Of a stretch of 64,000 bases of DNA, positions 46,435 to 64,000 are shown piece after piece. The notes below the pieces were generated by a model. That model saw only the letters and a program-made list of their open reading frames with translations. It was not told the DNA's origin and searched no databases. The stretch spans positions 44,232 to 108,231 of the forward strand of contig JACPJR010000026.1 of NCBI GenBank assembly GCA_016187565.1, read 5' to 3'. Both the position numbers and the translations under genes were made by a program. Each line of letters starts with the position of its first letter. The first letter of the stretch is position 1. The DNA is from Candidatus Woesearchaeota archaeon (lineage in GTDB: Archaea; Nanobdellota; Nanobdellia; Woesearchaeales; JACPJR01).

Positions 46435-46540
46435 GAGCGCAACGCTCTTTTTTCTCTTTTTTTCTTTTCCTTCTTGTTGTTGTTTATCTTCATGTTCCTG
46501 ACATTCCTCTTATATGTAGGGATGAATAGTTTACGTTTAA

Positions 46541-47110: not shown

Positions 47111-47116
47111 CCTCTT

Positions 47117-47443: not shown

Positions 47444-47645
47444 CTTCTTTGTTGTCCCACAGTTCTTTCATCTTAACTTGCTGAGTTTTATGGAGAAACT
47501 CATCATATTGGTTTCTTTTCTTTATATTCTTACATGTATGAATCATCTGCTTAATCAATTCATTATAGGTCTGTCGAGGATATTCTTTCACTTCCTTTAA
47601 TGATGCTACAACGGATTTCTCAAGTTGTATAGTTGTTGCGCTCAT
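47421..47645 (-). CDS. Putative antitoxin (RHH/MazE-like) of the MazF-like toxin
   Basis: 74 aa with N-terminal beta strand TTIQLEKSVVASL followed by helices; immediately upstream of, and overlapping, the toxin. Confidence 0.5.
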   Translation of the reverse strand: MSATTIQLEKSVVASLKEVKEYPRQTYNELIKQMIHTCKNIKKRNQYDEFLHKTQQVKMKELWDNKEDEAWENA

Positions 47646-47795
47646 TATACATCACCAATAGTAGGTATATAATCAGTTATATATAAACTTTGCTTTTCTG
47701 ATGAGTGGTTGTTTTTAAATGTGTAAACAGAATAGCAAATGGAACACCAGAATTGCCTGTCCGAAACGTTTATATAGAGAAGTAACATCAACTTC

Positions 47796-47996
47796 TTGGT
47801 GAAAGATATGACAAGGACAATAACGATAAATGAAGATATTTTTCAGGAAATGATACGGAAGAAAGAAGAATTCGATGTTATTGTGGAATCAATAGAACTT
47901 ATGAATGCTCCTGAGGTGCGAGAATCAATAAGAAGGAGCAAAGAAGATATCAACGCTGGAAGAATACACAAGCTAAAGGATGTTCTCAAAAAATGA
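47796..47996 (+). CDS. Phd/RelB-like antitoxin
   Basis: 66 aa, acidic; overlaps the downstream RelE-like gene by 4 nt (ATGA). Confidence 0.5.
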   Translation: MVKDMTRTITINEDIFQEMIRKKEEFDVIVESIELMNAPEVRESIRRSKEDINAGRIHKLKDVLKK

Positions 47997-48247
47997 GTTA
48001 TGAAGTTATATTAACCGACTCTTTCTTAAAGGATGTGAAAAAATTAAAGAATAAACCACTTGAAGAGCAGGTTCTCTACAAATTACAGGAACTTGAGGAG
48101 AGTCCAGAAAGAAACAAGAAACTACAATACGAATTGAAGGATTATTATAGAATAAGAGTAGGAAAACTTCGAATTCTTTACACCATTCAAGGCAATAGAG
48201 TTTATGTTGAAGTTCTCGTCAGAGGACATAAGTACGAAGAGGTATAG
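47993..48247 (+). CDS. RelE/ParE-family toxin
   Basis: C-terminal LKDYYRIRVGKLRILYTIQGNRVYVEVLVRGHKYEEV matches the RelE/ParE consensus. Confidence 0.7.
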   Translation: MSYEVILTDSFLKDVKKLKNKPLEEQVLYKLQELEESPERNKKLQYELKDYYRIRVGKLRILYTIQGNRVYVEVLVRGHKYEEV

Positions 48248-48300
48248 GGCGGGCAATAAACCTCACATGTGTTTTTAACTGCGTCTTTCGATCGTATAGC

Positions 48301-48588
48301 TCATTTGAAGATGTCAGAAACAGACTCTATTTTAATAGTCTTTTCTTTTTTAATCTTCGCAAGTTTCTTGATAAACGCTTCCTTGAGCGGTAATTCGTCA
48401 ACAGGATGCCAGTCTATGCTCTCACAAAACGTCCAGTCGTCATCAGAAACTTCTCCGGTTTGAAGGTACTTTTCAAAAATCAGCTTCTTTCTGGTTTCTT
48501 CTTTAGCGATCTCGCTCCAATTAACCCATTCGAAATGCTTTAGCTTTTCCTTAAATTCACTGCTTATTGATAATGTTACCGATGCCAC
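48301..48588 (-). CDS. Orphan VapB-like (SpoVT/AbrB or RHH-type) small protein, GTG start
   Basis: VTLSISSEFKEKLKHFEWVNWSEIAKEETRKKL is homologous to the VapB-like antitoxin at 62306-62533 (ITLAIPEDLHTRMREHSEIRWSEVVRKTITQKI); 95 aa. Confidence 0.4.
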   Translation of the reverse strand: MASVTLSISSEFKEKLKHFEWVNWSEIAKEETRKKLIFEKYLQTGEVSDDDWTFCESIDWHPVDELPLKEAFIKKLAKIKKEKTIKIESVSDIFK

Positions 48589-48589
48589 G

Positions 48590-48745
48590 TTAGAGCGCTC
48601 CTTTATTCTTCAATTCTTCAAACTTTAGCAATTCATGTATTCTAAGCTGGAATCTCTTTTTTAGATATTCAGCTAAGTTAATTTCAGGGAATTTATCAAT
48701 TTCTTCTTTCAATTCCTTAGGTATTGATACCGTAAAGGTAGCCAT
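48590..48745 (-). CDS. Small VapB-like paralog (51 aa)
   Basis: Manual translation MATFTVSIPKELKEEIDKFPEINLAEYLKKRFQLRIHELLKFEELKNKGAL; tandem paralog of the downstream gene; not in the ORF track. Confidence 0.35.
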   Translation of the reverse strand: MATFTVSIPKELKEEIDKFPEINLAEYLKKRFQLRIHELLKFEELKNKGAL

Positions 48746-48864
48746 AGTACGAGCACCCAACTTAGTTAATACACGAGAATTCGTTTGTCTATTTAAACTT
48801 TGCTTCTTTTGAGACGTTTATCTCTCACAAAACGTCCAGTCTTCATGAGAAATTTATTTTGTGG

Positions 48865-49758
48865 TCACTTGGCATATCTATAATACATTTTCAAATATCT
48901 CTTTACTAAAGATTGTACAAAAATATAGTCTTTGTTCTTCGTCTGGCTTCTCTCGAGAGCGTTATAATAACTGTTTCGGTTTGTATACTCAATGTTTAAC
49001 ATCGGATAGCTGTGCTTATGCAATACAAAATTCATCATTAATCTTGAAATTCTTCCATTACCATCGCTAAATGGATGGATAGTTACAAATTTCAAATGAA
49101 CCAACGAAGCCAAGACTACGGGGTTTAGTTTACTTTTATTTTTATGGTACCAGCTACAAAAATCATGGAGCAAAATATCAAGCTCTGCTGGGAATGGTAG
49201 TTCTACTTTGCTTCGAGCAATAGCTACTTGATGCTTTCTTATTACCCCTGCAATATCAGGCTTGGTGTCTTGTAAAAGTAGCTTGTGCCAATAAAGTACC
49301 GTAGACAGACTTAAATCTTTCTTAGAGTCTAGCATTTCATAGAAAACTTTCCTATGAGCTTCTGCTTCTTTCACATCCTCTAGAGGCTTATTTCTGGGCG
49401 TTATGTGTTGCTGTAACAAATCAGCCGTTTCTTTCAACGACAGTGTACTACCCTCTATTCTGTTGGTGTTATACGTAAATCTAATCATAAATGATTCAAT
49501 GTGCTGTTCTCTCGCAGAAGGGGGATAGGTAGAGAAATCCTCGCTAAATTTCTTCTGAATACTCTCAAGATTTTCGTTAAATTTCTCTAAGAATAGCTCG
49601 TGCATGAATTTTTCTTTAATTAATGCTGTATTCTTAGGCTCTTCAGAACCAAGATACTTTCTTTTGTTCCTAAATCTCTTACCTTCTCTGATGGTGTGTT
49701 CGAGATAATAATAAGTCTTACCTTTAACTGTTCTTATCCTCAGGTTCACCATAAACAC
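48865..49758 (-). CDS. Fic/DOC-family protein (putative AMPylase)
   Basis: Fic motif HPFSDGNGRISR; 297 aa. Confidence 0.8.
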   Translation of the reverse strand: MFMVNLRIRTVKGKTYYYLEHTIREGKRFRNKRKYLGSEEPKNTALIKEKFMHELFLEKFNENLESIQKKFSEDFSTYPPSAREQHIESFMIRFTYNTNRIEGSTLSLKETADLLQQHITPRNKPLEDVKEAEAHRKVFYEMLDSKKDLSLSTVLYWHKLLLQDTKPDIAGVIRKHQVAIARSKVELPFPAELDILLHDFCSWYHKNKSKLNPVVLASLVHLKFVTIHPFSDGNGRISRLMMNFVLHKHSYPMLNIEYTNRNSYYNALERSQTKNKDYIFVQSLVKRYLKMYYRYAK

Positions 49759-49855
49759 AGGTATGCGTCACAAATATATAAATCTTGCTATTTTCATCAA
49801 AAAGTGACGTATAAGCATATTCCTGCTTCAAGATTTGTCCTGGAGAAGCATCATT

Positions 49856-52153
49856 TTAATCACAAGGTGGTCCTGGATGTGCACAATGTGTAGCAGGATC
49901 AGTAGCACTTACCGCAGCTGCTGTTGCAGTAGGATCAGGAGGTGGATCTACAGCAGTATGATCTAATGCAGCCCTCTCTTGAGCTTGTCGTTTCCAGTCA
50001 TCTCTTTCCTCTTGGGTTGGTGGATCTTTTGGTACCTCATTATAGTCCACAGGAAGTTTATCAAAGCTATAGATTTCTTCTCCACCCCATATAGCTGCAT
50101 AGGGACCTGTAGGGTAACTATCACTATCTGTGTAATAATATTTACCTTCTTTAACTCTTACCTCGTAATACTTTCCATCTGGCTGCTTGATGTACAGAGA
50201 ATTAAACTCCAAATCGCCAAACAGATCATCAAGACCAACAGCATCGGGAAGTCCAGAGTTGATGGTAATTATGTCATTCTCTGTCCTTGTCCATTCTTTT
50301 CTTGCTTCTCCTGGAGAGTTGCGGGTTTCAGCGCCAGTCTCTCCATCTGGAGCTGGTTCAGCACTTTCTTCTGCTTCGTCCTTTGTTGCATCAGCACTTA
50401 CTGCTGCTGCCTCAGGAGCACCACTCGTACCTGCAGCAGTGTCAATCGCATACCATCCATCTGGTTTCAGGGTACCTAAATCAATTGGAAATGTAACTAA
50501 CTTATTTTTATCGTTGTCCCATGCGGTTACGTCGTTGAACAGAGTTGTGGAAGTGGGATCAACACTCACTCTCATTTGATTTAGGTCATTGATGCTGGCT
50601 ATTTGACCGCCTCCTTTATTCTTACCAAGAGCGTCAAGAGGTTCTGTGGAGAAGGAGACCTGTGTTGTTGATGTTGGTTGTTTTTTTTCAGGATCTTGCG
50701 TTGTCCCTACCCATAAAGGTTGCTTATCAGGTATTCTGTTGTCATACTCGTAGAATAGCTCCTGGTTGTCAACATTGACTCTAGCTAGATCCTCTACATG
50801 ATTCTCTTCAAAGTCAAACTCTTCTGTTGTTGCCAATTGTACCTTTTGTCCTTCAATGCTGGTGTAGAGGTCTTTATACATTCCCTCTACTGCGATATCG
50901 CTCTCACCCTTCTTTTGCGTTACCTTTCCTTGTCCCAGAAGCACAGTTTCAGTGCCGGTGAAAATTGCGACTGGAGTATTTTCATCCGTTCTGAGAGTCT
51001 CTATTGCAGTTACATCTCCGTTCAAAGCCTTCTCTCCGTCAGAACCTTCTTCAACGCCAAAGAGAACCCGGAGCCCATGGTCGGGGGCATTCTCAAACCG
51101 CGTAGCCGTACCTGAAAGAGCATCGGTAGCATATGCATCACCATCTTTAATGGTTGTTTCAGTCAACGCTTGAAGTCCTTGTCGGTCACTAAATCGAATT
51201 CCAAAGTAGTTTCCTTTTCCTTTCACATCGTATTTTTTTCCATTAACCTCTGTCAGAAAGGTGAATTCAACATCCAGTGTAGAGACAATAAGATTCGCGT
51301 CAGGATTAAACGTGACCGTGGCATCATTCTTCCCGGGCTGTGCCATAATATAATCACTTTCCCGGTTAGTAAACAATTTACCTTGGATTTTCCAGTTGCT
51401 CCCTTGAGCTAATGAAAAATGTCCTTCCACGAATTCAAATCTGACTGCAGGGTGGTCAGATTCTCCTTCTACTCTACGATACGTCACCCCATCTCGGGTA
51501 ACTGTTCCAACTCCATTAATAATAAACTGATCACCTTCTAAGGTCATTGATGCTCCAGGTTCACCTCTAAATACACTATCCGTGCCTGCTACAGGAACCG
51601 TGACTTTTCCTCCTTTATCAGCGAATGTTACCTTAATTGAGTCCCCCTGCTCAGGATATCCCTCGTTAACGACAGTAATCATTGCTGCACTGTCAAACTC
51701 ACAGGTCTTTCCTTGATAGATACTCTGACAATATTTCTCGGCAATGGTTTTATCTTTCTCAGCAGTCATACCATCTGGGAATAAGGTTGATGAGGTTAGG
51801 TAGTTGTGTGCATTATTGAGGGTGTTGTCTGTGTAGGTCTCACCACTATCACTGCTTTCCAAATATCGTTGAAAGAGATCCTTATTGCTCTCACTGACCT
51901 CGGGTTTATTTTCAAAATAGGTCTTTGCATAGTCTCCTTTATAGTTGGCTGTTAACCATTTCGGACAACTCTCTGGGTTAGTTTCACACCAGGTACTAAA
52001 ATCTTCAACATTTTCACCAGTAAATTGTTGGTTTCCATCGTCAGAGTCACCCCCCCCGACATCTGTTTCTGCAGAGATGAGGGGTGAGAACACCACTAAC
52101 ACTACAAGTAACGTTATCCATAATGGTATCATCATTTGTTTCATCGTTATCAA
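49856..52153 (-). CDS. Large secreted protein (operon member H), Cys-containing C-terminus
   Basis: Signal peptide MITMKQMMIPLWITLLVVLVVFSPLISA. 765 aa. Pro/Ala/Thr-rich C-terminal tail ending CAHPGPPCD. G8 homopolymer near the 5' end. Confidence 0.6.
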   Translation of the reverse strand: MITMKQMMIPLWITLLVVLVVFSPLISAETDVGGGDSDDGNQQFTGENVEDFSTWCETNPESCPKWLTANYKGDYAKTYFENKPEVSESNKDLFQRYLESSDSGETYTDNTLNNAHNYLTSSTLFPDGMTAEKDKTIAEKYCQSIYQGKTCEFDSAAMITVVNEGYPEQGDSIKVTFADKGGKVTVPVAGTDSVFRGEPGASMTLEGDQFIINGVGTVTRDGVTYRRVEGESDHPAVRFEFVEGHFSLAQGSNWKIQGKLFTNRESDYIMAQPGKNDATVTFNPDANLIVSTLDVEFTFLTEVNGKKYDVKGKGNYFGIRFSDRQGLQALTETTIKDGDAYATDALSGTATRFENAPDHGLRVLFGVEEGSDGEKALNGDVTAIETLRTDENTPVAIFTGTETVLLGQGKVTQKKGESDIAVEGMYKDLYTSIEGQKVQLATTEEFDFEENHVEDLARVNVDNQELFYEYDNRIPDKQPLWVGTTQDPEKKQPTSTTQVSFSTEPLDALGKNKGGGQIASINDLNQMRVSVDPTSTTLFNDVTAWDNDKNKLVTFPIDLGTLKPDGWYAIDTAAGTSGAPEAAAVSADATKDEAEESAEPAPDGETGAETRNSPGEARKEWTRTENDIITINSGLPDAVGLDDLFGDLEFNSLYIKQPDGKYYEVRVKEGKYYYTDSDSYPTGPYAAIWGGEEIYSFDKLPVDYNEVPKDPPTQEERDDWKRQAQERAALDHTAVDPPPDPTATAAAVSATDPATHCAHPGPPCD

Positions 52154-53181
52154 CCGGTTACATTAATCATAAGCATGATAAAGTCTGAGGCATTCAAGGG
52201 ATCGGTAACCGTCACAATAGGTGTGTAAAGACCGGACTCAGTAGGGGTAAAGCTCACCATTCCCTCAGCATTAATCGTTGCTTGGTCATCGAGAATTGCA
52301 TAGGTTAAGGGATCATGGTCAGGATCAACCGCAGTGATGTTCAGAAGAATTAAGCCAAGCGGTGCTTCATGGTATGGTTCTATGGTAATGATAGGCGCTC
52401 TGTTTCCTAGGCCAGGCTGCATCTGGACGGCAAAACTAAATTGTAACGGATAACCATTCAGTTGCGTGGTGTCCTCTCGTATGGTGACTACCTTCTCATA
52501 GGTGTCAAGATGATACACCGCTACATCTACGGGTTGTGCGGCAATACCGCTTAAGTCTATCATAGTGGGATCTGCAGCAAAGAGATCAACAACAGCATGC
52601 CCGACCGTAAGGACCTTGCCAAGAGGAACTGGAACAAGAACATTAAATGCATCTATCTGCTGCTCATTTCCTGGCGTAGCAATGGTGAGGGGGAATTGTG
52701 TCTGTACAAGGACATCTTCTTCACGGATTTGTACCGTGCTCTGCAAGGTTCCATAATTTGTAATGTTGTATCCCGGCAGGTTGTCTTCTAAGGCAAGAAT
52801 ACAGGAAAGGGCGAATTGATCAACATAGTCGGCAATCTGCTGGGCGATGAGCGTCGTAGAGGGTGAAATATCATTTCCCTGGTAAAACCAGTAAGAGGTG
52901 TTGGCGTAGAAGGTTGCAAGGGTTGGGATAGAAGGAGGAATCCAGATATAGCCTCCTTGAAATCCTGAGAAAAAAAGAGCATTCTTCGCTTCATTGCTCA
53001 GACAAGATTCCACATAGACCTGGGCAGTTGGCGCAACAACCAGTGATTCTTGCGCCTGTTCTTGTTGCTTTTTGGTTTCAGTGGTTGTTTTTCCTTTCGT
53101 GAGCGTAAATAAGGTACCAACCACAATAACGAGAACAATACCCACTATCAAGAACAAGGTTATTTGACCCTTTGTACTCAT
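52150..53181 (-). CDS. Type IV pilin-like protein with class III signal peptide and cadherin/Big-like C-terminal domain
   Basis: MSTKGQITLFLIVGIVLVIVVGTLF matches the archaeal prepilin motif (K-G-Q then hydrophobic helix). C-terminal DPDHDPLTYAILDDQATINAEG resembles cadherin-like repeats. Confidence 0.6.
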   Translation of the reverse strand: MSTKGQITLFLIVGIVLVIVVGTLFTLTKGKTTTETKKQQEQAQESLVVAPTAQVYVESCLSNEAKNALFFSGFQGGYIWIPPSIPTLATFYANTSYWFYQGNDISPSTTLIAQQIADYVDQFALSCILALEDNLPGYNITNYGTLQSTVQIREEDVLVQTQFPLTIATPGNEQQIDAFNVLVPVPLGKVLTVGHAVVDLFAADPTMIDLSGIAAQPVDVAVYHLDTYEKVVTIREDTTQLNGYPLQFSFAVQMQPGLGNRAPIITIEPYHEAPLGLILLNITAVDPDHDPLTYAILDDQATINAEGMVSFTPTESGLYTPIVTVTDPLNASDFIMLMINVTG

Positions 53182-54032
53182 GCGTTAGCCTCTTTTGTGG
53201 TTATTTTTTGAGATATAGAGCCAGAGCTTCCTTTTATACCTTTTGGTTTTATGGACTTTGTTTTGATTGTTATTCTGCTCGATGCCACTGTGGTGATGAC
53301 TTGGATGAAAAACAGCCGTGCCCAATCCAGATAGGCAAGGAACAGAAGAGCAATACAACCATACCATACGCCTGCTGGCAGTCCTTGCAAGGCAAAGATG
53401 AGAATGAAGAGCAGTACACCACCAACGCTTATAATTATAAGAGGGATAATAAATCGATGGATCTTGAAGAGCACGTGCATACTCTGAGCGAGTGATTTTT
53501 TGATCTGTTGTGGATCAAGAAGTGTGGAGAGAATGACCGTACCATAAACGTAAAGCGGGAGAAGGATGTACACCATGGTCCAGAAGAAGGCTTGTTCCTG
53601 TTGGATGGTGAGTAAGAGCAACAGAAACATTGCCCATAAAAGAAACCAGCCGGTCTTCATAAGAAAGAGCACACTGAAAAAACGTGCAGTATAGCGTTGT
53701 TGCATACAGTAGCGATAGATCCATCCCTTGATAATGGAGGAGAGCAAGAGAGTAGCAAGGATTGTCAAGAGCGTGATAAAGACAAATCGATAGGCTATCC
53801 CTTGCACAAAGGTAAGTAAGAGAGCAGGATCGTCAAACTGTCCAGGTTCTGTATTGAGAATGCCTGCACTATACGTGAGATAGCCATACCAAAGCAAGGC
53901 AATGAGGATGACATACACCAGATCAAGAGCAAGACCAACAAGTAACTGCTTTCCATCAAAACTCTTCTTGAGTTCTTTGAGGGCAAGAAGATCTCCAAGG
54001 CGAGAGGTGTTAAGGAATGGTGCGCTCATCAT
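53178..54032 (-). CDS. Polytopic membrane protein (operon member)
   Basis: ~8 TM helices. Start placed at an internal Met to avoid a 77-nt overlap. Confidence 0.5.
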   Translation of the reverse strand: MMSAPFLNTSRLGDLLALKELKKSFDGKQLLVGLALDLVYVILIALLWYGYLTYSAGILNTEPGQFDDPALLLTFVQGIAYRFVFITLLTILATLLLSSIIKGWIYRYCMQQRYTARFFSVLFLMKTGWFLLWAMFLLLLLTIQQEQAFFWTMVYILLPLYVYGTVILSTLLDPQQIKKSLAQSMHVLFKIHRFIIPLIIISVGGVLLFILIFALQGLPAGVWYGCIALLFLAYLDWARLFFIQVITTVASSRITIKTKSIKPKGIKGSSGSISQKITTKEANA

Positions 54033-54951
54033 CACTACCTCCACCGTCACCCGGCCCAATATCTGGCGCTTCCCCTTGTGGAGCACTATAACTTAACATT
54101 CCTTCAACAAACTCATCCTGGTTAAGCAGAGGAACACAGACAGGATCTTCAATATCTTCCGCAGTATAACTTGCAGCCAAGTCTGGATTGTAATCTTCAA
54201 TATACCGGACACAGAGATCAGTCCAGTATGGCTGGTCTTGAGCAACATTTTTGTCACTATAACTACTCGAGGTTTCATTCAGATAAAACTGGAAGAATCC
54301 ACTTGCAGCTCCCTGCTGATTTCTGAGAAGGGTTCCACTCTTATTGATGACTGCATAGGTATTGGGGATGTTTCTGTTTTTCAAGTAAAGAGTAAAGTAG
54401 ATGCTATCTCCGAGAGACCAGTCGAGTTTGTAGGAAAAGGTATCATCTCCTGTTTGGTAGTACCATTCTCCTGCAAGATAAACTGCATAGCGTCCAAATC
54501 CCTGGGAATCAACACGAAGCATTGCATCTTCAGGCACTCCTAAACCAAAATCAGACTTCTGGCACATCCACAATTCCCAGACAAAAGGATCTGCAAAATC
54601 ATAAGGAAGTCGCCGTTCTTTTTCATAGTCAGTCCATCCGAGTTTTTCAGCAAGGTAGATTGAACTTGGATCTGGGGTTCGGAAAAATTGTTGTCCAGAA
54701 GGAACGCCAACCCCACCAAAGATGAAATTACACCATCCAGACCAACCTCTGTCTGAACCCTCAGTTGGAGCTGAACACGCTTTATCAGAGTGTACTACTG
54801 GACTTACGGTTGTTCCTATCCCTGCGTCTCCTCTTGTCTCCCCTTCATCCGGCCTATCACCTGTCCCTTCCACCCCTTGTGGTAGCACCAAGAGTATGCT
54901 TGTTGCTACTACTATCATCACCACTATGTTGAGGTATGCTCTGGAGTTCAT
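54010..54951 (-). CDS. Secreted protein with C-terminal PDIGPG-Gly-rich motif
   Basis: Signal peptide IVVMIVVATSILLVLPQGVEG; Trp/Tyr-rich beta domain; ends ...APDIGPGDGGGSDDERTIP. Confidence 0.55.
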   Translation of the reverse strand: MNSRAYLNIVVMIVVATSILLVLPQGVEGTGDRPDEGETRGDAGIGTTVSPVVHSDKACSAPTEGSDRGWSGWCNFIFGGVGVPSGQQFFRTPDPSSIYLAEKLGWTDYEKERRLPYDFADPFVWELWMCQKSDFGLGVPEDAMLRVDSQGFGRYAVYLAGEWYYQTGDDTFSYKLDWSLGDSIYFTLYLKNRNIPNTYAVINKSGTLLRNQQGAASGFFQFYLNETSSSYSDKNVAQDQPYWTDLCVRYIEDYNPDLAASYTAEDIEDPVCVPLLNQDEFVEGMLSYSAPQGEAPDIGPGDGGGSDDERTIP

Positions 54952-54957
54952 GTTGTC

Positions 54958-57900
54958 TCACCCTGAAGGCCCAATGTCTGGCCCTCCACCTTCTTCTCCT
55001 CCTTCTTGATCTTCTTCACGCTTTTCAAGGGCATCAAGGACTTCCTTGACATCTTCTTGGCCACAGATATCATCTTCTCCTTTGAACATGTTCTTGAAAC
55101 TATCTGCTTTAAAGATTGATGCAATATTGTTGGTGTAGCTTTCATGATCGGCAAAGGTCATATAGGAATCAAAAAGAGCACAGCCCATGTTGGTGATGGT
55201 CATGGGATTCTCTAAGGTAGATGCCTTACAGACCGGCGTACTTAGTTGCGTATTATAGTCAGCACAGACAAATCCTCGAGCCTGTTGGATTGCAAACGCC
55301 GTAGGATGGTTAAGAATGGTTTGCACCCACTCAGCCATTCGTTCAAGGACAAGAAAGGCACCAAAGCTGCGGGCAATACTTCCCCAGGTATAGACACATT
55401 GCGCAATCGCTAATCCTTCTTCACAACTGGCAAATCGCTGTAATCCGCTCTTGCTCTGCTCAGCCATACAATCAACATAGGCACATTCAAGTTGCTGTAG
55501 TCTATTGAGATGGTAGATAATGCCAGGCACACAAAAACAGCCAATACTTACAATAATACTGTCCTCTGGCCGTGGATATGCAGAAAAGGCATTTCGTAGA
55601 TCTTCGGTAGTAGGAATGGGTCGTACATTCTTTTCTGTCCCTGTTTTTTCCTGAGCGGAGTCTGTTATTTGTTTATCAAATGGTAAGAATGTTTCAGGGT
55701 CAAAGAGATAATCACTTCCAGGAAATCTGTTCCATGTATACCCCTCACTGTCAACTTCCCCACCCCAGAGATTCGTTTGTGGATTAGGATCACATTGCGC
55801 ACAACTCACCGCAGCACAGGCCTGTTTGAGAAACTTACCTCCACCTGTTGGTTCACCAGATGACTCTTTTCCAAATAATTTTCCAATGCTCGTCAGTTTC
55901 GTACTCTGAATATTACACATAATCTCATTATACTTGTCCCAAAGGTTTTGTGCAGCCGGAGGATCAAAGGCATAAATAACCCCGCTGATGGCATAGACAA
56001 CTGCTCTGGTCTGGGCCATGAGTTTGTACAGTGCAGACAGTACACCTTCCAACTCGCAGATATTATTGAGAATGGTAAAGAGTTTATTGAGCCCATTGAC
56101 CCATTCTTGCCCTGCACGAACCCAATGCCTATGTTCATTAATCTTGTCCAAAAACGCATCATCAACACTATCTAAAGGAACATTATAGATCTGGACCGCA
56201 AAACTCACGTTCTCAAGCTCTGGATTTCTCAGAGCCTGTTCTTGATAGATATAGTCGAGGTAGAAGATACAATCAAAGGGAACCTCTGGGCCGATCTCAG
56301 AGAAATCCGTTGTTTTGAAATCAATCCGCAATACTGCAGTCCATTCGTCTAAGGAAGGATCATATACCGGATCAGCATAGAGATAGGGCTCGTCAGAAAA
56401 TTCAGAGGCGTAATTACATTGTTCTCTGACGACTGCCTTGAGATCATCTCCGTTAATGCTTGCTCCTGCTTTCTCCCTAAGATGCACGACGGCAAATGCC
56501 TTCAGCGGAAAGCGTTGCGCAGTTAATGCATCTAATTTGTAGTTGTCCGGAATAAAGGAAACCGTGTTGGTAAAATGGTCAGGAAATTCCTCAGTAGAAA
56601 CACCATAGATCCTGAGCGTTGTTTCTTGGGTTGCCGTGTTGCCCACCATATCACTGATAGAAAATTTCACACTCACCTCTCCGCTTGTTGCTCGTACATC
56701 AGTAATCGTCCAGGTACAGGTTTGCGTATTGTTAATGGTCTTAGGACTGCATTGATCTGCAGGGATCTTAATCGCTCCTGGTTTAATCCGTGAAAAATCT
56801 CCAGAGGTAGTACTGCCATCTTCAGCTACCTGACTGTGGATTTCTTCAATCTCGGCAGTAAAGAGTAGGGTATCACCATCCTTAAAATAGTCCTTTCCTT
56901 CATCGGTTGCTACGGTAATGCTGAGAATTTCTGGTGGCGTTTCATCATACACGAAGCTTCCTCGAATTTCGCCTTCAATAGGATTACCAGCATCATCCTG
57001 CGAAGGGGTGGTGAGAAAGATATCAACCGTTCTTCCACTCACTAAGGAAACTCCCTTTCGCAGATTATACCAACGGCAGCTCCAGAGTTCGCCTGCTGCC
57101 GTGCAATCATTACTTCCAACCCGTTGCCAGGCGCTTCCCATAAAGCCACTTAAATCTACGGTTACATAATGCACCTCTTGATTATTGATGCTCATGGTCT
57201 TGGTAAATCCTGCGCCAGGAGATTGCAGGACTATGGTAAGATTATTGCTATCAGGTCCTAAGAAACATGCCTCGTTAATGCACATGCCGCTTTGAATTCC
57301 CAAACCTTCAGGTCCGCTATCATCAATGGTAAAGGTGACGGTCTGTTCTGCAGCGACGTTATTCCCTCCAACATCAGTCAGATTAAAACGCAAGACAGCA
57401 CTCTCGCTGTTCATCTTCAAATGGATGCGCTCAAAGGTACAGGTGTAGGTTTCTTCACTGGTCTCACAATCAACCTGGATTCCTGCGCCACTATTGGGAA
57501 AGGGAATTGCTTTATAGCTCTCGGCAAAGCTTCGGTCATCATTAAGATAAGAGAGATCAGCAATACTTTCGACAAGATTTTCTTCCCTAAAGACGACTTC
57601 AACATCAACGACTTGTTCTCGGTTCCCTTCTAAGGAGATGTATCGTACTTCTTCGCCAGACTGATCATCCAGTATGCTAACGCTTTCCAATGCAGGGTCC
57701 TCAAGATCAATAGTATAGCGTATATGATCGCTCTCGGTTGCTTGACTAAAGAGATCATAAACTCTAACGTACAGATCAGTTTCTCCTGAGGTAACACCGT
57801 CAAGAACAAGCCCGGTTGCATAGCTGCAATTTTGGGTATTGGGACGATCAAGACCAACAACATCACCATTCGCATAGATCTCAAGATACGAAATGCCTGT

Positions 57901-58482
57901 ACATTTTCCTTCACATTCAGGATCTTGGCATGCAGTATCAGCAACAGAGATATTTGCTGTTACTTTTTTGTTTCCCTGGGTGATATTAAAGAGGGTTATG
58001 GTTGGAGGAAGCTCTTCAGGATAGACCATAACAGGACCAAAGACATCAAGCGGATCACTGACACCGGGAGTAAAATAATAAAAGGTAAATCCATAGGGAT
58101 CCTCAGGAATAAAACTGGAGTCCGTACACGTACATTCTTGGCCAACAACAGTTGGGCTGGAATAAGCTGCACAGGAAGTACCTCCATTACAAAAGTTGCG
58201 ACCAAAAACAACATTGTTTACCTTAATCTGGTCTGGCTCAACAGTATCATTGGTTTCAACAATGACCTTGTAGGTTAAGATATCATCTTGGCGATGATAT
58301 TGAGCAGTGCCATCAATACCGGTTACTGTTGCATTAAAAATAGTGTTTGGTTGAGCAAAAATCGGCGTAATCAAGGATAAACTGATGACTAAGCTTGCCA
58401 TCAACAAAGCTATACTTTTTTTGAGATCTACGGTTCTTGTGAAATCCATGATCCTTAGGGGCATAAATAAGTTTCTCCTCAA
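54958..58482 (-). CDS. Giant secreted Cys-rich protein with C-terminal GGGPDIGPSG motif
   Basis: 1174 aa. N-terminal signal/TM KSIALLMASLVISLSLITPIFA. Ig-like beta-rich N-terminal two-thirds. Cys-rich ~400-aa C-terminal domain ending EEGGGPDIGPSG. Confidence 0.65.
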   Translation of the reverse strand: MRRNLFMPLRIMDFTRTVDLKKSIALLMASLVISLSLITPIFAQPNTIFNATVTGIDGTAQYHRQDDILTYKVIVETNDTVEPDQIKVNNVVFGRNFCNGGTSCAAYSSPTVVGQECTCTDSSFIPEDPYGFTFYYFTPGVSDPLDVFGPVMVYPEELPPTITLFNITQGNKKVTANISVADTACQDPECEGKCTGISYLEIYANGDVVGLDRPNTQNCSYATGLVLDGVTSGETDLYVRVYDLFSQATESDHIRYTIDLEDPALESVSILDDQSGEEVRYISLEGNREQVVDVEVVFREENLVESIADLSYLNDDRSFAESYKAIPFPNSGAGIQVDCETSEETYTCTFERIHLKMNSESAVLRFNLTDVGGNNVAAEQTVTFTIDDSGPEGLGIQSGMCINEACFLGPDSNNLTIVLQSPGAGFTKTMSINNQEVHYVTVDLSGFMGSAWQRVGSNDCTAAGELWSCRWYNLRKGVSLVSGRTVDIFLTTPSQDDAGNPIEGEIRGSFVYDETPPEILSITVATDEGKDYFKDGDTLLFTAEIEEIHSQVAEDGSTTSGDFSRIKPGAIKIPADQCSPKTINNTQTCTWTITDVRATSGEVSVKFSISDMVGNTATQETTLRIYGVSTEEFPDHFTNTVSFIPDNYKLDALTAQRFPLKAFAVVHLREKAGASINGDDLKAVVREQCNYASEFSDEPYLYADPVYDPSLDEWTAVLRIDFKTTDFSEIGPEVPFDCIFYLDYIYQEQALRNPELENVSFAVQIYNVPLDSVDDAFLDKINEHRHWVRAGQEWVNGLNKLFTILNNICELEGVLSALYKLMAQTRAVVYAISGVIYAFDPPAAQNLWDKYNEIMCNIQSTKLTSIGKLFGKESSGEPTGGGKFLKQACAAVSCAQCDPNPQTNLWGGEVDSEGYTWNRFPGSDYLFDPETFLPFDKQITDSAQEKTGTEKNVRPIPTTEDLRNAFSAYPRPEDSIIVSIGCFCVPGIIYHLNRLQQLECAYVDCMAEQSKSGLQRFASCEEGLAIAQCVYTWGSIARSFGAFLVLERMAEWVQTILNHPTAFAIQQARGFVCADYNTQLSTPVCKASTLENPMTITNMGCALFDSYMTFADHESYTNNIASIFKADSFKNMFKGEDDICGQEDVKEVLDALEKREEDQEGGEEGGGPDIGPSG

Positions 58483-58501
58483 AAATCTTTGGTATCTTTG
58501 G

Positions 58502-59380
58502 TTATGATGGTTTCATCATGTAGGGGTAGGCTTGTGAAAAATCCTCAACAGCCATCATGATATTCATCTCCTCAATGCGGATGGGTAAGGGTAACTTAAA
58601 GACATAAAAGGTTATCTCTTCCTGAGCCAGCATCTCCTTGGTAATGGTAATGTTCCCGACAGCACCTCCAATAAGTGCAGGGTTTAAGGTTATGGAAGGA
58701 ACCGTTACCTTTTCCTCGTCTCCAAGACAACCAAATATATTGGCGAGGATCTGCAGAGCAAAAATAACGCTTACAATGGCTATGCCAATAGGACCTGCTG
58801 CAGCCAAAGGCGCTGCAATACTTGAAAGTACCGGGATAGAGGCAGCGGCAAGATAGCTTGCTCCGACACTAATGCCTGCTGCAATAGCTGCATCTTTTGC
58901 CGTATCACCGGTCTGTTTCCATCCCCCACCAGTCAGACCTTTACAGTAGGAAATCTGATATTCAGGAATGGTCACATTTTCATACAACAACAACTGTGCT
59001 TCCATGCGATAAGTCCCAGGAATGAGCGGAACAACAACCGTCTTATTTTTTTCATCGCCTTTTTTAATCACATACTGTTGAAAAGGAGCATCGCCAGGGT
59101 CAGTGCTTATGCGTTCCAGTATCAATAACACTTGCTCTGCTCTTTCGACAGGGCTTGTTTCTGTTGCCAATAATTGCCGTCGTTGTTCTAAGGTAGGGGC
59201 TTGCTGCAGCGCGTAGATATTATCAAAGTCTCTTTCCTTTAAAACAACATTCTGGTAATCAAGCGGCTCAAGGTCTACGGTAATTGGCTTCGTACTCAGA
59301 AGGGATGCCGTGGTCACGGGCAAAAAAAACAGAAGGAGACAGCAACAGAGAACACTTATACGCATCAGTAACGGTTTCAT
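58502..59380 (-). CDS. Secreted protein with C-terminal Ala/Gly-rich hydrophobic anchor
   Basis: Signal peptide MKPLLMRISVLCCCLLLFFLPVTTA. C-terminal AAIAAGISVGASYLAAASIPVLSSIAAPLAAAGPIGIAIVSVIFAL. Confidence 0.55.
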   Translation of the reverse strand: MKPLLMRISVLCCCLLLFFLPVTTASLLSTKPITVDLEPLDYQNVVLKERDFDNIYALQQAPTLEQRRQLLATETSPVERAEQVLLILERISTDPGDAPFQQYVIKKGDEKNKTVVVPLIPGTYRMEAQLLLYENVTIPEYQISYCKGLTGGGWKQTGDTAKDAAIAAGISVGASYLAAASIPVLSSIAAPLAAAGPIGIAIVSVIFALQILANIFGCLGDEEKVTVPSITLNPALIGGAVGNITITKEMLAQEEITFYVFKLPLPIRIEEMNIMMAVEDFSQAYPYMMKPS

Positions 59381-61011
59381 TGTTCAACCACCACCGAAAG
59401 CTCCTCACCTATCTTCGTATCAACGACCACTGAATAGTCAAGATAATCCTGCTTGCTCATGGTGAGGACACCATTTAAGCAGACAGGTAATTGTTTGGTT
59501 ATTCGTGCTTTTTCTTCATCGTCAAGAGAGGTCACTCCAACAAAGAGGCTGCGTGCGCCACAGGCATACATGACCTGAACACCGGGCAATGCCTGTTTTG
59601 TTTGCTTATCCCGTGTTTCAATGGTCACATTGCCACTCAATCGTTGATTCCGCTGGTCAAAGAGGGATTGTTCTCCTAACAAAGGCTCTCCTAGTTGATA
59701 GTCTGTAGTAAGTGCCCAGTTATCACGAATGTTTGTTTCTATGGCAAACTGGAAATGATATCCCTGTCCAGCAAATGCATCATCATCACGTAAGGTTACT
59801 AATACCGGGAAGCTCACATCATATGAAAACTCATACCGCTGGATAAATACTTGGAGAAGACCTTGTAAACTCTGCTGTGAGATCGTGCTTGCCGTGATAA
59901 GCTCACCTTCACGTGGCGTAATGTCAAAATAAACAGGCCACCCTAAATAAAAGAAATCAACGCTATAGGGATAGGGCTTTTCAAGAATCGTGATGACGAA
60001 CATATCGAGAACACCCTGTTGTTCATTCGTCAAGACCGCGTTATTTTCAACACGGTATCTTCGATAACCAGTCGTGTTCGGAATCTGGATGGCCTGGATA
60101 TAGTTGGGCAAAATGAGCTCTTCGATGACCTCTTGAACTTCAGTCTTTATCCAAGGTGCTCGTATGCCGCCAGGGCCAAAGGTTGTGGCAGCAAAGGGTG
60201 GCAGAGGTTTTTCCACACCAGAATACAATGCAATAAGGTTTAAGGTAACGTCCTCAATATATGCCCAGGCAATCTCCTCATTCACGATTTTTGTGGAAAG
60301 CTCGTACATTGCAAAGAGAGGAACATCGATAATACTAATGAATGCATCAAGATCATAGATTTTTTCTCCACGCTGTACGGTTAAGGGGTAGGAGATCTCG
60401 ACAACCACATCCTTCTGCGTCACTATGGTTAAGGGTTGGATATCTCCTGTTTCGGTAATCACCATGCCTTGTTGGGCAAATGGTTTAAAGTCATCAAGGC
60501 AAGCAGGTAGCTCTCGTTGTATCCACCGATCCAATTGTGCTTCCATGGACTTATCGTTTGACGTTCTCATTCCTTCTTGTTGCGTGCTTTTAAGCAAAGG
60601 TCTTCCGCGATCAGAAAACTGACAATCCTTGGTACAGTCATTCCTGCTTTTCAGGTACCACCAGTATGGTACACGTAAGGGACCAAAATCAATAAGCTCT
60701 GACTCTGTTGGTACAGAAGAATAGTGAAAGCTGCTGCCGCTTAAGGTTTCATCAGTAAGACTAATCCACCCTCCCTGCATACCCATAATCTTCAAGCCCT
60801 TCACCGTAACATCAGTAACACAGTTCTCCACATAATCCTGTATTGGTTGCACTTCGGGAGGAACCTTTACTTCTTCTCGTACGGGTGGTTTATATTCGCT
60901 GACTCTGGACTTAATAAAAAAGATAAGGAATGAGGAAAAAATCAAGAGGAGTCCAATAAGCAAAAAAACCGTTACCTGTGCTTTTCTTCCTCTTTTTTTA
61001 TTTGATGGCAT
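59377..61011 (-). CDS. Large pilin-like protein with class III-type signal peptide
   Basis: From the internal Met: MPSNKKRGRKAQ|VTVFLLIGLLLIFSSFLIFFI (charged, then A-Q, then hydrophobic helix). The ORF-track start at 61074 would overlap the upstream gene by 77 nt. ~544 aa extracellular domain. Confidence 0.5.
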   Translation of the reverse strand: MPSNKKRGRKAQVTVFLLIGLLLIFSSFLIFFIKSRVSEYKPPVREEVKVPPEVQPIQDYVENCVTDVTVKGLKIMGMQGGWISLTDETLSGSSFHYSSVPTESELIDFGPLRVPYWWYLKSRNDCTKDCQFSDRGRPLLKSTQQEGMRTSNDKSMEAQLDRWIQRELPACLDDFKPFAQQGMVITETGDIQPLTIVTQKDVVVEISYPLTVQRGEKIYDLDAFISIIDVPLFAMYELSTKIVNEEIAWAYIEDVTLNLIALYSGVEKPLPPFAATTFGPGGIRAPWIKTEVQEVIEELILPNYIQAIQIPNTTGYRRYRVENNAVLTNEQQGVLDMFVITILEKPYPYSVDFFYLGWPVYFDITPREGELITASTISQQSLQGLLQVFIQRYEFSYDVSFPVLVTLRDDDAFAGQGYHFQFAIETNIRDNWALTTDYQLGEPLLGEQSLFDQRNQRLSGNVTIETRDKQTKQALPGVQVMYACGARSLFVGVTSLDDEEKARITKQLPVCLNGVLTMSKQDYLDYSVVVDTKIGEELSVVVEQ

Positions 61012-61765
61012 TGTAGCAGGTAAATTTGTAAAACTCTGATTGAATTTCATTACAGGCTGTTTGTACGTTTTCATTATGACGGTGGATTAAGGCAACGGTT
61101 ACCAGGCATAGATCGTTCTGTTTTTCTCGTGTTAAGCATACTACCTTTGCTTCGGTAAAGTCAAAGCCTTCAAGTTCCTGAACGATTTGATCGATGTTTT
61201 TGGTGAGCGAGAGATAAAGGCCAATGGCTGAGCTCAGAAGGATTAACAACATGATACATCCTATGACAATGATACTGTGGGCAAAGAAAACATCCTTGCG
61301 TTCAGGAGAAAAATATGTTTTCTTAAGGAAATAGCTTCTCCTGTTGTGGACATACCAGAGCGTAAGTCCATTGAGAATGACGGTAACAAGCAATGCTCCA
61401 AGAATCAGTTGTTCCATAAAGCCAAAGATACTGAACTTTAAGAATGCTACTGAGATGAGTGAATTCAGGACGCTGAGGGAATAGAGAACAAAAGCCAAAT
61501 AATAGGACCATGATTTTTGTTCAGCAATACCATACACCAGCACGGCAATAATGACGGTCGTAAGAATATTGACGTCTCGTGCTGCATTGCCAATCAGCAT
61601 TTTGCCTGCAAGCATGGTGCTGGGCACGTAGATCGCTAAGAAGAGATAAAATACTCCAAGAATAAGAGAATAAATGATCAGCACTCGGACTGCATACGGC
61701 CTCTCTTTTTTAAAAGGCTGAGCTACTTTTTCAATCTGCCCCTTCCTCTCTTTTTTCATTCGCAA
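60998..61765 (-). CDS. Polytopic membrane protein (first gene of surface operon)
   Basis: 255 aa, ~7 TM helices, basic N-terminus. Confidence 0.55.
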   Translation of the reverse strand: MRMKKERKGQIEKVAQPFKKERPYAVRVLIIYSLILGVFYLFLAIYVPSTMLAGKMLIGNAARDVNILTTVIIAVLVYGIAEQKSWSYYLAFVLYSLSVLNSLISVAFLKFSIFGFMEQLILGALLVTVILNGLTLWYVHNRRSYFLKKTYFSPERKDVFFAHSIIVIGCIMLLILLSSAIGLYLSLTKNIDQIVQELEGFDFTEAKVVCLTREKQNDLCLVTVALIHRHNENVQTACNEIQSEFYKFTCYNAIK

Positions 61766-61807
61766 GGATTAAAAGAGAACTTCTTTATAAAGTTTTTCTT
61801 ATTTTTT

Positions 61808-61850
61808 CTCGTTGTTTTTGTTGAAAAATCAATTTTTTGGATCTCAAAAC
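61808..61850. repeat. Direct repeat copy A (promoter-like, upstream of surface operon)
   Basis: ctcgttgtttttgttgaaaaatcaattttttggatctcaaaac; near-identical to copy B at 62632-62675. Confidence 0.6.
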
Positions 61851-61871
61851 ATTAATGTGCCGCGTAGGTAA

Positions 61872-62309
61872 CTATTTGGTTTTTTCTTTTTCTTCAGGAA
61901 AAAACAGTTTTACAATATGCTTTGTCTTAAAAACTCTAACTTTATTCTGTTTTTCAAGATGAGGGTCATCTGACCACATCTTAGAATTTTCAATGCCAAA
62001 AGCAGTTGCCAAGAAAACAACATCATCAGGATCAATTTTTCCAAGAAGTTTATCAACTTCTTCTATTTTAAGCTTAATCTGCTCTTCTGGGACTAAAGTA
62101 ATATGCTTTAGTAAATGATTTAACAATTCTGTATATTCTTCTTCATTCATTCCAGATTTTTCTAGAACTAAATCTTTATACTTCCTTATCTCGTGGAAAG
62201 AAGATTCTGGATAGAAAAAGTCCCAGCCAGACTCAACAATAATCTTTCTTACAGTAGAATCCCTAATAAGACTAGCAAGAAGGATATTAGAGTCAATGAC
62301 AAGAATCAT
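61872..62309 (-). CDS. vapC: PIN-domain toxin VapC
   Basis: MILVIDSNILLA N-terminal PIN motif and DDVVFLATAF C-terminal motif; 145 aa; overlaps vapB by 4 nt. Confidence 0.65.
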   Translation of the reverse strand: MILVIDSNILLASLIRDSTVRKIIVESGWDFFYPESSFHEIRKYKDLVLEKSGMNEEEYTELLNHLLKHITLVPEEQIKLKIEEVDKLLGKIDPDDVVFLATAFGIENSKMWSDDPHLEKQNKVRVFKTKHIVKLFFPEEKEKTK

Positions 62310-62533
62310 CTTCTTAGACCGAGTTTTCTTGCAACTGCACTATCTACTTTATTAGCAATTTCATCTACATCTTTTTGTGTTAATTTACTCTTAGCAGTTA
62401 GTTTGTCCATAACATCTAAATCTTCTATCTTCTGGGTTATAGTTTTTCTAACTACTTCACTCCACCTAATCTCAGAGTGTTCTCTCATTCTTGTGTGTAA
62501 ATCTTCCGGTATTGCTAATGTTATATTTGGCAT
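62306..62533 (-). CDS. vapB: VapB-like antitoxin
   Basis: 75 aa, ITLAIPEDLHTRMREH beta-strand/helix N-terminus; upstream of, and overlapping, vapC. Confidence 0.55.
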   Translation of the reverse strand: MPNITLAIPEDLHTRMREHSEIRWSEVVRKTITQKIEDLDVMDKLTAKSKLTQKDVDEIANKVDSAVARKLGLRR

Positions 62534-62631
62534 GTTTTATCACCTTATGTGGATAGATGTGATTACACATATATAAACCTTTCGCTAAGTTTTCGTAAAA
62601 ACGTCCTTTCGTCAGTTAGGAAACCCCCGTT

Positions 62632-62675
62632 CTCGTTGTTTTTGTTTAAAAATCAATTTTTGGGATCTCAAAAAA
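62632..62675. repeat. Direct repeat copy B (promoter-like, upstream of vapBC)
   Basis: ctcgttgtttttgtttaaaaatcaatttttgggatctcaaaaaac. Confidence 0.6.
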
Positions 62676-62759
62676 CGTATGCGGATCGCGGTTATGCTCC
62701 TCCGTTAGGGCAGAGTTCGAGTTTTGGCGTATCGAGGACGAAGAGTCATTCCTTGCTGC

Positions 62760-63020
62760 CTATTTAGACCTAAAATAATAAAGATACAACATAAATACAG
62801 AAGTTAATATATTTAGTGTAAATAGAATATTATTATAGAAATCTCTAACCTCAATGATATTATATATCAACATGAATCCATTTCCAATTACCCAACACCA
62901 AATCATTAAAGCACTTAAACCTTTTCGGGTTTTTGTCTTAACCTGAGTGTAGATTTGTGGTAATACAGAAAAAATTATAAGAATATTTCCCAAAATTGCT
63001 ACAACAGAGAGCATTGTCAT
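62760..63020 (-). CDS. Small hydrophobic membrane protein (weak)
   Basis: 86 aa, three predicted TM helices, very AT-rich. Confidence 0.3.
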   Translation of the reverse strand: MTMLSVVAILGNILIIFSVLPQIYTQVKTKTRKGLSALMIWCWVIGNGFMLIYNIIEVRDFYNNILFTLNILTSVFMLYLYYFRSK

Positions 63021-63358
63021 AATACCTAACTTACTGAATAGTTAATAAATTTTTCGTTAAGCGGGCAAGGAATTATTGAACATAACACATACGCCCGGTG
63101 TTATGCTCTCCGTCGGTTACGAAGTCCCAACGGATTTCGACCGAAAAGTAATTTTGAGAGGCGTTCTATCAACGGAGCGAACAGCGACTTTCAAGAACAA
63201 GAAGTAACGGGGACAATTTTAATTCATCCAAGGCAAAGCCTCTTCAAGTTAATCTATTTTAGGGGAGAGTTCTGTTTCTACAAAATTTCATCGGAATATT
63301 TATATAGGAATTATGCCTTGGCTTATGATATATCACAGTTTACGGGGGAGTTTCGCTA

Positions 63359-63586
63359 ATGATTAATACAAAACAAAAGATACTAGAATTTCTAAAAAAG
63401 GCAGATTGGCCTTCAACAACAGAAGACATAGCAGCAGAAGTTAAAGTATCTTGGAATACAGCACAAGTGCATCTTCTAAAAATGGTTCACGAAGGAATTC
63501 TAAAATATAAGAAAGTCGGAAGACAAAATCAGTTCTGGCTTAATGAAAGTTATGAGAAATACTTTAAGATAGTGGATAAAAAATGA
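63359..63586 (+). CDS. Small winged-helix DNA-binding protein
   Basis: 75 aa; ILEFLKKADWPSTTEDIAAEVKVSWNTAQVHLLKMVHEGILKYKKVGR is a wHTH fold. Confidence 0.5.
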   Translation: MINTKQKILEFLKKADWPSTTEDIAAEVKVSWNTAQVHLLKMVHEGILKYKKVGRQNQFWLNESYEKYFKIVDKK

Positions 63587-63912
63587 TAAAGGAATACAAA
63601 CAATTAAGTTTAGTCAAACCACGAACTGGAATTATAGCAAAAATTTGTGGAATATTCTTAATTTTATTAGGTTTTATAATATTTCTAACAGGAGTAATAG
63701 CCATAATAACTATTATAGGTATATTTTACACATTTGGCGCAGCACTAATAGCTTATGCCTTAGGGTTACTTGGTCTTAGTCTTTTTTTTGGATTAGTTAA
63801 GGCAGAATGTCCTTATTGTGGAGCAAAATTAAAAATTTTGCCATTTCGCCATTCGCTTAGATGTATTAGGTGCTTTAATTTAATATTGCTTAAATGGAAA
63901 GATGAAAAATGA
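63583..63912 (+). CDS. Small membrane protein with C-terminal zinc ribbon
   Basis: Two TM helices then CPYCGAKL...CIRCFNL; overlaps the upstream gene by 4 nt. Confidence 0.4.
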   Translation: MIKEYKQLSLVKPRTGIIAKICGIFLILLGFIIFLTGVIAIITIIGIFYTFGAALIAYALGLLGLSLFFGLVKAECPYCGAKLKILPFRHSLRCIRCFNLILLKWKDEK

Positions 63913-64000
63913 TTGAATCAAAGAAATTTAAACAGATTGATATAGAATTTTCTGAATTTTGTAAAGGCGTTAATAATAAAAATGAGTATCAGCAAGAAAT

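Follow-up and report, generated by a model that had tools for sequence, protein, structure and literature searches.

A vapBC module bracketed by 44-nt direct repeats upstream of a woesearchaeal surface operon, and its possible origin by insertion

In the window (the whole 64-kb stretch of DNA that was analysed), a vapB–vapC toxin–antitoxin (TA) pair lies directly upstream of an operon for surface proteins and is enclosed by two near-identical short sequences. The question raised by this locus is how such an arrangement arose, and whether it ties the TA genes to the surface apparatus. The first-pass annotation had taken the repeat to be promoter-like, proposing either that the cassette inserted with duplication of the operon promoter or that one promoter now drives both units. 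The reading favoured here, with a probability of roughly 0.55, is that the direct repeats are the footprint of the insertion of the vapBC cassette.

The window, part of the chromosome of a DPANN archaeon, also encodes GatE, the ribosomal proteins S24e and L44e, eIF2-alpha, Rpo7 and GINS. The operon is a co-oriented row of genes for membrane or secreted proteins of unknown family on the minus strand (49856–61765; GC 0.41–0.48), and the 253-aa product of its first gene has the same sequence as HYW21_07245, a protein from a Candidatus Woesearchaeota MAG. The features between this gene and the neighbouring PQ-loop gene are as follows.

60998–61759, minus strand: first surface-operon gene, 253-aa membrane protein, HYW21_07245
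61784–61798, minus strand: surface-operon promoter, with the TATA box TTTATAAA at 61784–61791 and a purine-rich, BRE-like GAAAAAC at 61792–61798
61806–61849, no strand: direct repeat copy A, 44 nt, 22 nt past the vapC stop
61850–61871, no strand: 22-nt tail between the vapC stop and copy A
61872–62309, minus strand: vapC, PIN_2 toxin, 145 aa (PF10130, E=7.7e-23)
62306–62533, minus strand: vapB, RHH-type antitoxin, 75 aa (PF26688 RHH_12, precomputed)
62539–62577, minus strand: vapB expression signals, namely the TATA box TTTATATA at 62570–62577, a palindrome and a ribosome-binding site
62590–62629, minus strand: partial Woesearchaeal non-coding leader, GGGGGTTTCC ... GGACGTTTTTACGAAAA, which travels with vapBC
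62630–62673, no strand: direct repeat copy B, 44 nt, two mismatches to copy A
62674–62759, no strand: GC-rich spacer, 54% GC, 3' of the PQ-loop gene

The two copies are identical at 42 of 44 bases and lie 824 nt apart, start to start. Alignment thus bears out the near-identical pair reported earlier, with the coordinates then given shifted by +2; the last base of the 43-mer described at that time (61850) is not common to both copies. Copy A is positioned 14 nt upstream of the operon TATA box, and copy B 87 nt past the stop of the PQ-loop gene, where it adjoins the conserved vapB leader. Only vapC, vapB, a 96-nt region upstream of vapB and the 22-nt tail are found between the copies, so that the repeats do flank exactly the gene pair, as had been noted. 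Dinucleotide-preserving shuffles of the window gave two matches to the 44-mer in 0 of 100 cases, and exactly 2 copies in 64 kb were recovered for each half when the halves were used as separate queries and up to 3 mismatches were tolerated. Since the 90-nt flanks on either side of both copies are unrelated, the repeat is sharply bounded, and generic A/T-richness, which the first-pass annotation had named as its own refutation, does not account for the similarity. The same arrangement was assembled independently in Logan contigs of about ten sequencing runs (all of one project), in which the repeat copies are identical wherever a contig reaches them. It is therefore not an assembly artefact, and is real and fixed in the sampled population.

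Within the 44-mer there are two A/T dyads, TTGTTTTT-N4-AAAAATCAA and TTTTG-N5-CAAAA, both of which are left intact by the two mismatches. The sequence folds into two weak, separate A/T hairpins with energies not clearly better than those of shuffles, and when read in the transcribed orientation it contains runs of T4–T6. No match to the 44-mer was obtained in JGI metagenomes, in IMG/VR or in any fetched locus. The window contains no tRNA gene and there is no Rfam match at or near the repeats; on these grounds the readings of the repeat as a tRNA-type att site, a known RNA or a CRISPR element were rejected. A non-coding RNA in the spacer next to copy B (62674–62759), considered separately, was also set aside, the folding z-score being about 0 on both strands.

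The pair enclosed by the repeats reads as a type II VapBC system, with a PIN toxin and a small RHH antitoxin gene upstream of it. From its translation, VapC has acidic residues at the PIN positions D6, E34, D95/96 and D114/115. The vapB product gives a weak match to the VapB model NF050799 (E=4.5e-6, below the cut-off), and the end of vapB and the beginning of vapC share 4 nt. For VapC, 112 homologues were obtained at E≤1e-10, mostly 54–90% identical, from metagenomes and MAGs of Woesearchaeota and Nanoarchaeota; none was found on viral contigs. At the DNA level, 62609–61880 of the window is 81–89% identical to vapBC modules in at least six other Woesearchaeota contexts, where the neighbours vary (ribosomal protein L15e and a SIS-domain gene; topoisomerase and SRP RNA; a 620-aa repeat protein; others). 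The GC content of the cassette is 0.30–0.34 versus 0.41–0.48 for the operon. The vapBC pair is a foreign module common to many contexts. On one side its similarity to the other loci gives out about 8 nt short of the vapC stop, and on the other side at the leader adjoining copy B; therefore the repeats sit at the module edges. The 22-nt tail is not common to other vapBC loci, and no direct repeats were found around vapBC itself in the other fetched loci.

The leader in other loci is about 125 nt long and reads GAGTAAAATTCTTACTTTT ... GGGGGTTTCC ... hairpin ... GGGCGTTTTTACGAAAA, followed by the TATA box. The leader in the window consists of the 3' part only, and copy B begins exactly where the 5' half would be expected. 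Given the limits of the module similarity and the leader abutting copy B, the vapBC module fills the space between the repeats almost completely. By eye the 44-mer could plausibly be a homologue of the leader 5' half (GAGTAAAATTCTTACTTTT...), and MAFFT places the two in the same columns, via A/T runs only. This homology was rejected after local alignments of the two proved no better than shuffles and an nhmmer profile of 13 leader 5' halves matched neither copy at E≤100. In copy B the final 7 nt of the repeat, ACGAGAA, are followed by ACGAGAAC-GGGGGTTTCC, precisely as in the leader elements of loci L043 and L045, which represent two other lineages, and L013, the only known relative of the operon, has ACGAG at the corresponding resident position. 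This correspondence could represent a microhomology junction, although a match of 5–7 nt counts for little where the DNA is A/T-rich.

Upstream sequences were surveyed for 51 genes of the window. In the largest gene class, of the leaderless type, the TATA box (TTTAAATA/TTTATATA) starts 29–33 nt before the ATG, while in genes with a GGTGA-type ribosome-binding site it starts 42–57 nt before it. Both units flanking copy A conform to this pattern. The operon TATA box TTTATAAA starts at −32 and lies 25 nt before the ATG at 61759, a leaderless-type spacing. The vapB TATA box TTTATATA is at −44, 52 nt outside copy B, and is followed by the palindrome ATGTG-TAAT-CACAT (ATGTGTAATCACAT, 62557–62570) and the ribosome-binding site GGTGAT (62539–62544). 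The palindrome, positioned between the TATA box and the ribosome-binding site, is likely to be the VapB operator. The vapB signals are conserved in six other vapBC loci (L014, L024, L052, L058, L059 and L060), and the operon promoter region is about 90% conserved in L013. Both true promoter regions are thus conserved in related loci that lack the 44-mer.

These observations bear directly on the proposal that identifies the repeat with the operon promoter, which would have been copied when the cassette inserted or would now serve both units, placing vapBC and the surface operon under common regulation. In its favour, both copies lie upstream of co-oriented genes and are A/T-rich, and a G-to-T change in copy B only creates TTTAAAAA, but this is on the strand opposite to the genes. 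Inside the repeat there is no TATA-like motif in gene orientation, whereas each unit has a canonical TATA box of its own outside it (61784–61791 and 62570–62577) at a distance typical of the genome, and the distance from repeat to TATA box differs (14 nt for the operon, 52 nt for vapB). A scan for bacterial-type promoters and terminators was uninformative. The repeat is the promoter of neither unit, and a co-regulatory role by this route is very unlikely. With the TATA boxes outside the repeat and conserved in loci without it, neither a shared promoter nor coupling of TA expression to the operon through the repeat finds support, and the idea that the toxin–antitoxin genes are wired to the surface apparatus is corrected to one of separate, conserved promoters. 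What is retained from the proposal of insertion with promoter duplication is its first half, with vapBC behaving like a cassette that was inserted directly upstream of the operon and is bracketed by a duplication; the duplicated sequence is not a promoter. Oligo-T runs are archaeal termination signals, and the T-runs of the repeat would more likely terminate than start transcription, stopping read-through from the upstream gene.

The surroundings of the repeats place the vapBC module at the edge of a flexible region. The DNA on both sides of the operon is of lower GC (0.27–0.41) and full of small genes. The right side holds vapBC, the PQ-loop gene, the gene of a 75-aa winged-helix protein (63359–63586) and one for a small membrane protein, and at the other end of the operon, to the left, a second TA island carries PemK/MazF, ParE/RelE and Fic genes, so that the site lies in a cassette-rich region. 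Among 5.8 billion clusters, only one homologue of the 253-aa operon protein was recovered (versus 112 for VapC); this is the 79% identical protein of L013, and no relatives of the operon were found in GTDB genomes. The DNA of L013 aligns with the window at 77% identity over 52148–61809 and ends 3 nt into copy A, at its inner edge, so that the border between the conserved operon and variable DNA coincides with the repeat edge. Upstream of this break L013 carries an ORF remnant and a gene for an IS200-like Y1 transposase (E=1.8e-11), with neither vapBC nor anything resembling the 44-mer upstream of the operon. The break supports, from sequence comparison, a recombination junction at the edge of copy A; L013 is not an empty site.

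On the opposite side, the closest PQ-loop locus (L053, 85% DNA identity) is aligned by blastn only as far as 62737, some 23 nt beyond the stop of the PQ-loop gene. Visual inspection extends the similarity to about 62700, so that the spacer is partly conserved beside the PQ-loop gene of L053; this point is well short of copy B, and the 44-mer is absent from L053. Other PQ-loop relatives lie in housekeeping, unrelated contexts. The comparison with related genomes for an empty site, which had been suggested as a check, was carried out: when vapC, the 253-aa gene and the PQ-loop gene were looked up by exact protein match, every site recovered was occupied. In this population vapBC and both copies are present on all contigs, and L013 is rearranged at the same spot.

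If the repeats are an insertion footprint, a self-contained vapBC module, bringing along a leader, a TATA box, an operator-like palindrome and a ribosome-binding site, would have entered the intergenic DNA between the low-GC, TA-rich flexible island and the surface operon, leaving one copy of the 44-bp segment on each side. The most likely route would be a single, Campbell-type crossover over the shared 44 bp between the chromosome and a circular or repeat-ended vapBC intermediate, using either short homology or a recombinase acting in trans. Filling-in of a staggered break, which duplicates the target, or a template switch during replication would give the same picture. A 44-bp repeat around a 780-bp insert fits a single crossover, a target duplication or terminal redundancy alike. 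Recombination between the copies could also release the cassette as an 824-bp circle, the junction of which would read from the 22-nt tail (…GGCACATTAATG) through one 44-mer into CGGGGGTTTCC, while the empty or excised site would read ...CCGCATACG, one 44-mer and AAAATAAGAAAAACTTTATAAAG. The two mismatches between the copies imply either some age for the event or partner sites that already differed. No integrase, tyrosine recombinase or transposase was found among the ORFs of at least 120 aa in the window, and there are no inverted repeats at the ends of the insert. A duplication of 44 bp is too long for classical transposition, and a DNA transposon with a target-site duplication (2–15 bp) was rejected for the length of the duplication together with the lack of terminal inverted repeats and of a transposase.

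An alternative to insertion is that the copies are a lineage-specific functional intergenic element kept by selection, with the presence of vapBC between them incidental. Such an element might be an oligo-T terminator or insulator between co-oriented units, in keeping with the T4–T6 runs, or the binding site of a dimeric regulator, for which the two A/T dyads, intact despite the mismatches, would be suited. Each copy follows the stop of a co-oriented gene (PQ-loop and vapC, respectively) and precedes the next promoter, and other Woesearchaeota have conserved, multi-copy leader elements at an equivalent position. However, a functional element of this kind would have to be reconciled with its occurrence only twice in 64 kb even when halves with 3 mismatches are allowed, with its absence upstream of the L013 operon although the promoter there is so well conserved, with the unequal distances to the TATA boxes, with the weakness of the hairpins and with the failure of the leader 5'-half profile to recognize it. 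Selection on such an element is considered fairly unlikely.

Terminal redundancy would place the origin of all 44 nt in the incoming DNA, an 868-nt linear copy of an 824-bp circular vapBC element, made perhaps by rolling-circle synthesis or template switching, having been ligated into a break. The relatives of neither flank carry the 44-mer (L013 stops at 61809 and L053 ends in the 62674–62759 spacer), as this would predict, and the ACGAGAA continuation together with the ACGAG of L013 is compatible with a microhomology junction of the strength described above. Yet no vapBC locus among those fetched has a 44-mer upstream and no circular form was observed, and this origin is considered rather improbable. 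Lower still stands the suggestion that the locus belongs to an integron-like cassette array (a CALIN, i.e. a cluster of attC sites without an integrase gene) in which the repeats are attC sites. The size of the cassette, about 0.8 kb, is right, but neither RYYYAAC nor GTTRRRY boxes occur on either strand in 61740–61960 or 62560–62790, and no box pairs are seen anywhere in 61700–64000 or 47100–49860. Furthermore, the 44 nt hold two small, separate dyads instead of one imperfect palindrome of 55–140 nt, and no IntI-like gene is present in the window, so that this identification is extremely improbable.

Insertion of the cassette, the preferred reading, is a new example of a known event, in which a mobile TA module settles along the border of a flexible island, and amounts to fairly ordinary genome flux. 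The locus closely resembles the chromosomal type II VapBC 'selfish' cassettes of archaea. As in those cassettes, the PIN_2 toxin gene is preceded and overlapped by an RHH antitoxin gene, the module has a promoter of its own with a palindrome where an operator would lie, its GC content is low, modules nearly identical to it recur in many unrelated contexts, and the island in which it is located is flexible and rich in TA genes. The locus differs from them in that a clean 44-bp direct repeat bounds the insert and a conserved non-coding leader travels along; to our knowledge, which extends to a narrow check of the literature, neither has been described for VapBC loci. Direct repeats of a few tens of bp, between which recombination excises a circle, also form the attL and attR sites of integrated archaeal elements of the SSV and pNOB8 types. 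SSV1 uses a 44-bp core, and the target of such elements is usually a tRNA gene. In contrast, the present locus has no integrase in the insert or the window and no tRNA target, its insert measures only 780 bp, and 2 positions distinguish the repeat copies.

Integrons and CALINs are known from archaea, Nanoarchaeota included, and TA cassettes are the commonest annotated cargo of these archaeal arrays (Ghaly et al., 2022; PMC9668308). Like such arrays, the locus described here has a small TA cassette with its own promoter, set among small genes in a row and bordered by short sites that resemble each other, but the defining attC features are absent from it, as are an integrase and attI. The minimal mobile elements of Neisseria, in which cassettes are swapped at fixed intergenic junctions with no recombinase in cis, offer a further parallel, and sister Woesearchaeota populations similarly show swaps at precise breakpoints. 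Exchange of the Neisseria type normally proceeds by double crossover and leaves no flanking duplication, whereas a duplication is present here. As it stands, the locus provides a clean, datable example of a TA module landing beside a host operon in a DPANN archaeon, with the repeat marking the exact border between the conserved surface operon and the flexible island.

Exchange of cassettes is seen repeatedly in sister lineages. A 2.46-kb HEPN/nucleotidyltransferase cassette next to vapBC distinguishes loci L014 and L016 from each other, and in L024 a 188-nt direct repeat (98% identical) brackets the 620-aa repeat-protein gene beside the vapBC homologue. L024 also has a short palindrome at nearly every gene junction, and the strains represented by L024 and L025, which diverge in carrying a second vapBC or a DUF7689 gene, start to differ immediately after one of these palindromes. 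Such flux makes insertion the natural reading of the 44-nt repeat. A broader scheme would have TA modules and surface-protein genes of Woesearchaeota (DPANN) swapped at conserved non-coding junction elements, the 44-bp repeat being one product. The exchange sites would be the palindrome ATTGAAYATAAY-N-GTGTTATRTTC and the G-box leader GGGGGTTTCC...GGGCGTTTTTAC, on which a recombinase would work in trans, possibly an IS200-like Y1 enzyme. This scheme is a long shot; if true, the process would amount to an integron-like capture of genes without attC or IntI. Should the repeats, leader and palindromes be dedicated recombination substrates, they would show how host-dependent archaea with reduced genomes shuffle their accessory genes.

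As a separate observation, one weak copy of the L024-type palindrome occurs in the window, at 63071–63114.

The vapB gene is preceded by a conserved non-coding leader with the layout GAGTAAAATTCTTACTTTT...GGGGGTTTCC...small hairpin...GGGCGTTTTTACGAAAA, which lies upstream of the vapB TATA box in six Woesearchaeota loci that are independent of one another. Genes other than vapB have an abbreviated form of the leader upstream, with several copies per locus. The leader has no match in Rfam. Among GTDB species representatives, Woesearchaeota RIFOXYD1_FULL_40_14 is the one archaeon that matches the exact motif; five further matches, all from bacterial MAGs, presumably reflect chance.

Positions of the leader in the window and in fetched Woesearchaeota loci (L numbers)
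Window 62590-62629
L014 3585-3722
L024 1259-1400
L024 3530-3665
L024 3340-3475, minus strand
L024 6830-6960, minus strand
Further loci: L041, L043-L046, L049-L052, L058-L060

L024 carries a 188-nt direct repeat (1159-1346 and 3427-3614, copies 98% identical) enclosing the gene for a 620-aa internally repetitive protein, adjoining a vapBC homologue, and this bracketing of a gene is an architecture shared with the 44-nt repeat of the window. The sister strains L014 and L016 differ beside vapBC by a 2.46-kb cassette (L014 4504-4681 versus L016 4504-6964) that encodes a 298-aa protein, a HEPN protein and a nucleotidyltransferase; an archaeal SRP RNA gene (L014 4687-4955) adjoins the site.

Almost all gene junctions of L024 contain a short palindromic element, ATTGAAYATAAY-N-GTGTTATRTTC, and the difference between the strains L024 and L025 begins immediately past one copy (L024:7390). 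The window has one weak, loop-expanded copy (63071-63114; nhmmer E=0.0085), located between the PQ-loop and winged-helix genes.

Copies of the palindromic element in L024
426-450
1158-1182
3426-3450
7365-7389
8140-8164
8273-8297
8377-8401

In L013, the sole relative of the surface operon, an IS200-like Y1 transposase gene and an ORF remnant (2-394 and 395-615) adjoin the conserved operon promoter at the point where copy A of the window begins, and a GC hairpin follows the transposase gene. The spacer 3' of the PQ-loop gene in the window (62674-62759; 87 nt) has a GC content of 54%, compared with about 33% in its surroundings, and is partly conserved beside the closest relative of this gene, in L053. 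No significant structure was detected on either strand of the spacer.

On its other side, the surface operon is bordered by a second TA island (47117-49758; GC 0.35-0.38). Directly to its left lie genes for two S-layer-like proteins, and the whole region is therefore rich in envelope genes.

Second TA island and adjoining genes
43966-47110, two S-layer-like proteins (PF05124)
47117-47443, minus strand, PemK/MazF
47421-47645, small partner of PemK/MazF
47796-47996, partner of ParE/RelE
47993-48247, plus strand, ParE/RelE
48301-48760, minus strand, two small RHH-like ORFs
48865-49758, minus strand, Fic/DOC gene

The island also contains a 34-nt direct repeat (48419-48452 and 48822-48855, copies 91% identical). 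One copy lies within a 95-aa antitoxin-like ORF, where it codes for ...DDDWTFCE..., and the other is intergenic, apparently the remnant fragment of a similar gene. Elsewhere in the window, a type IV TA pair of AbiEii toxin and AbiEi antitoxin (36318-37803) is situated amid housekeeping genes.
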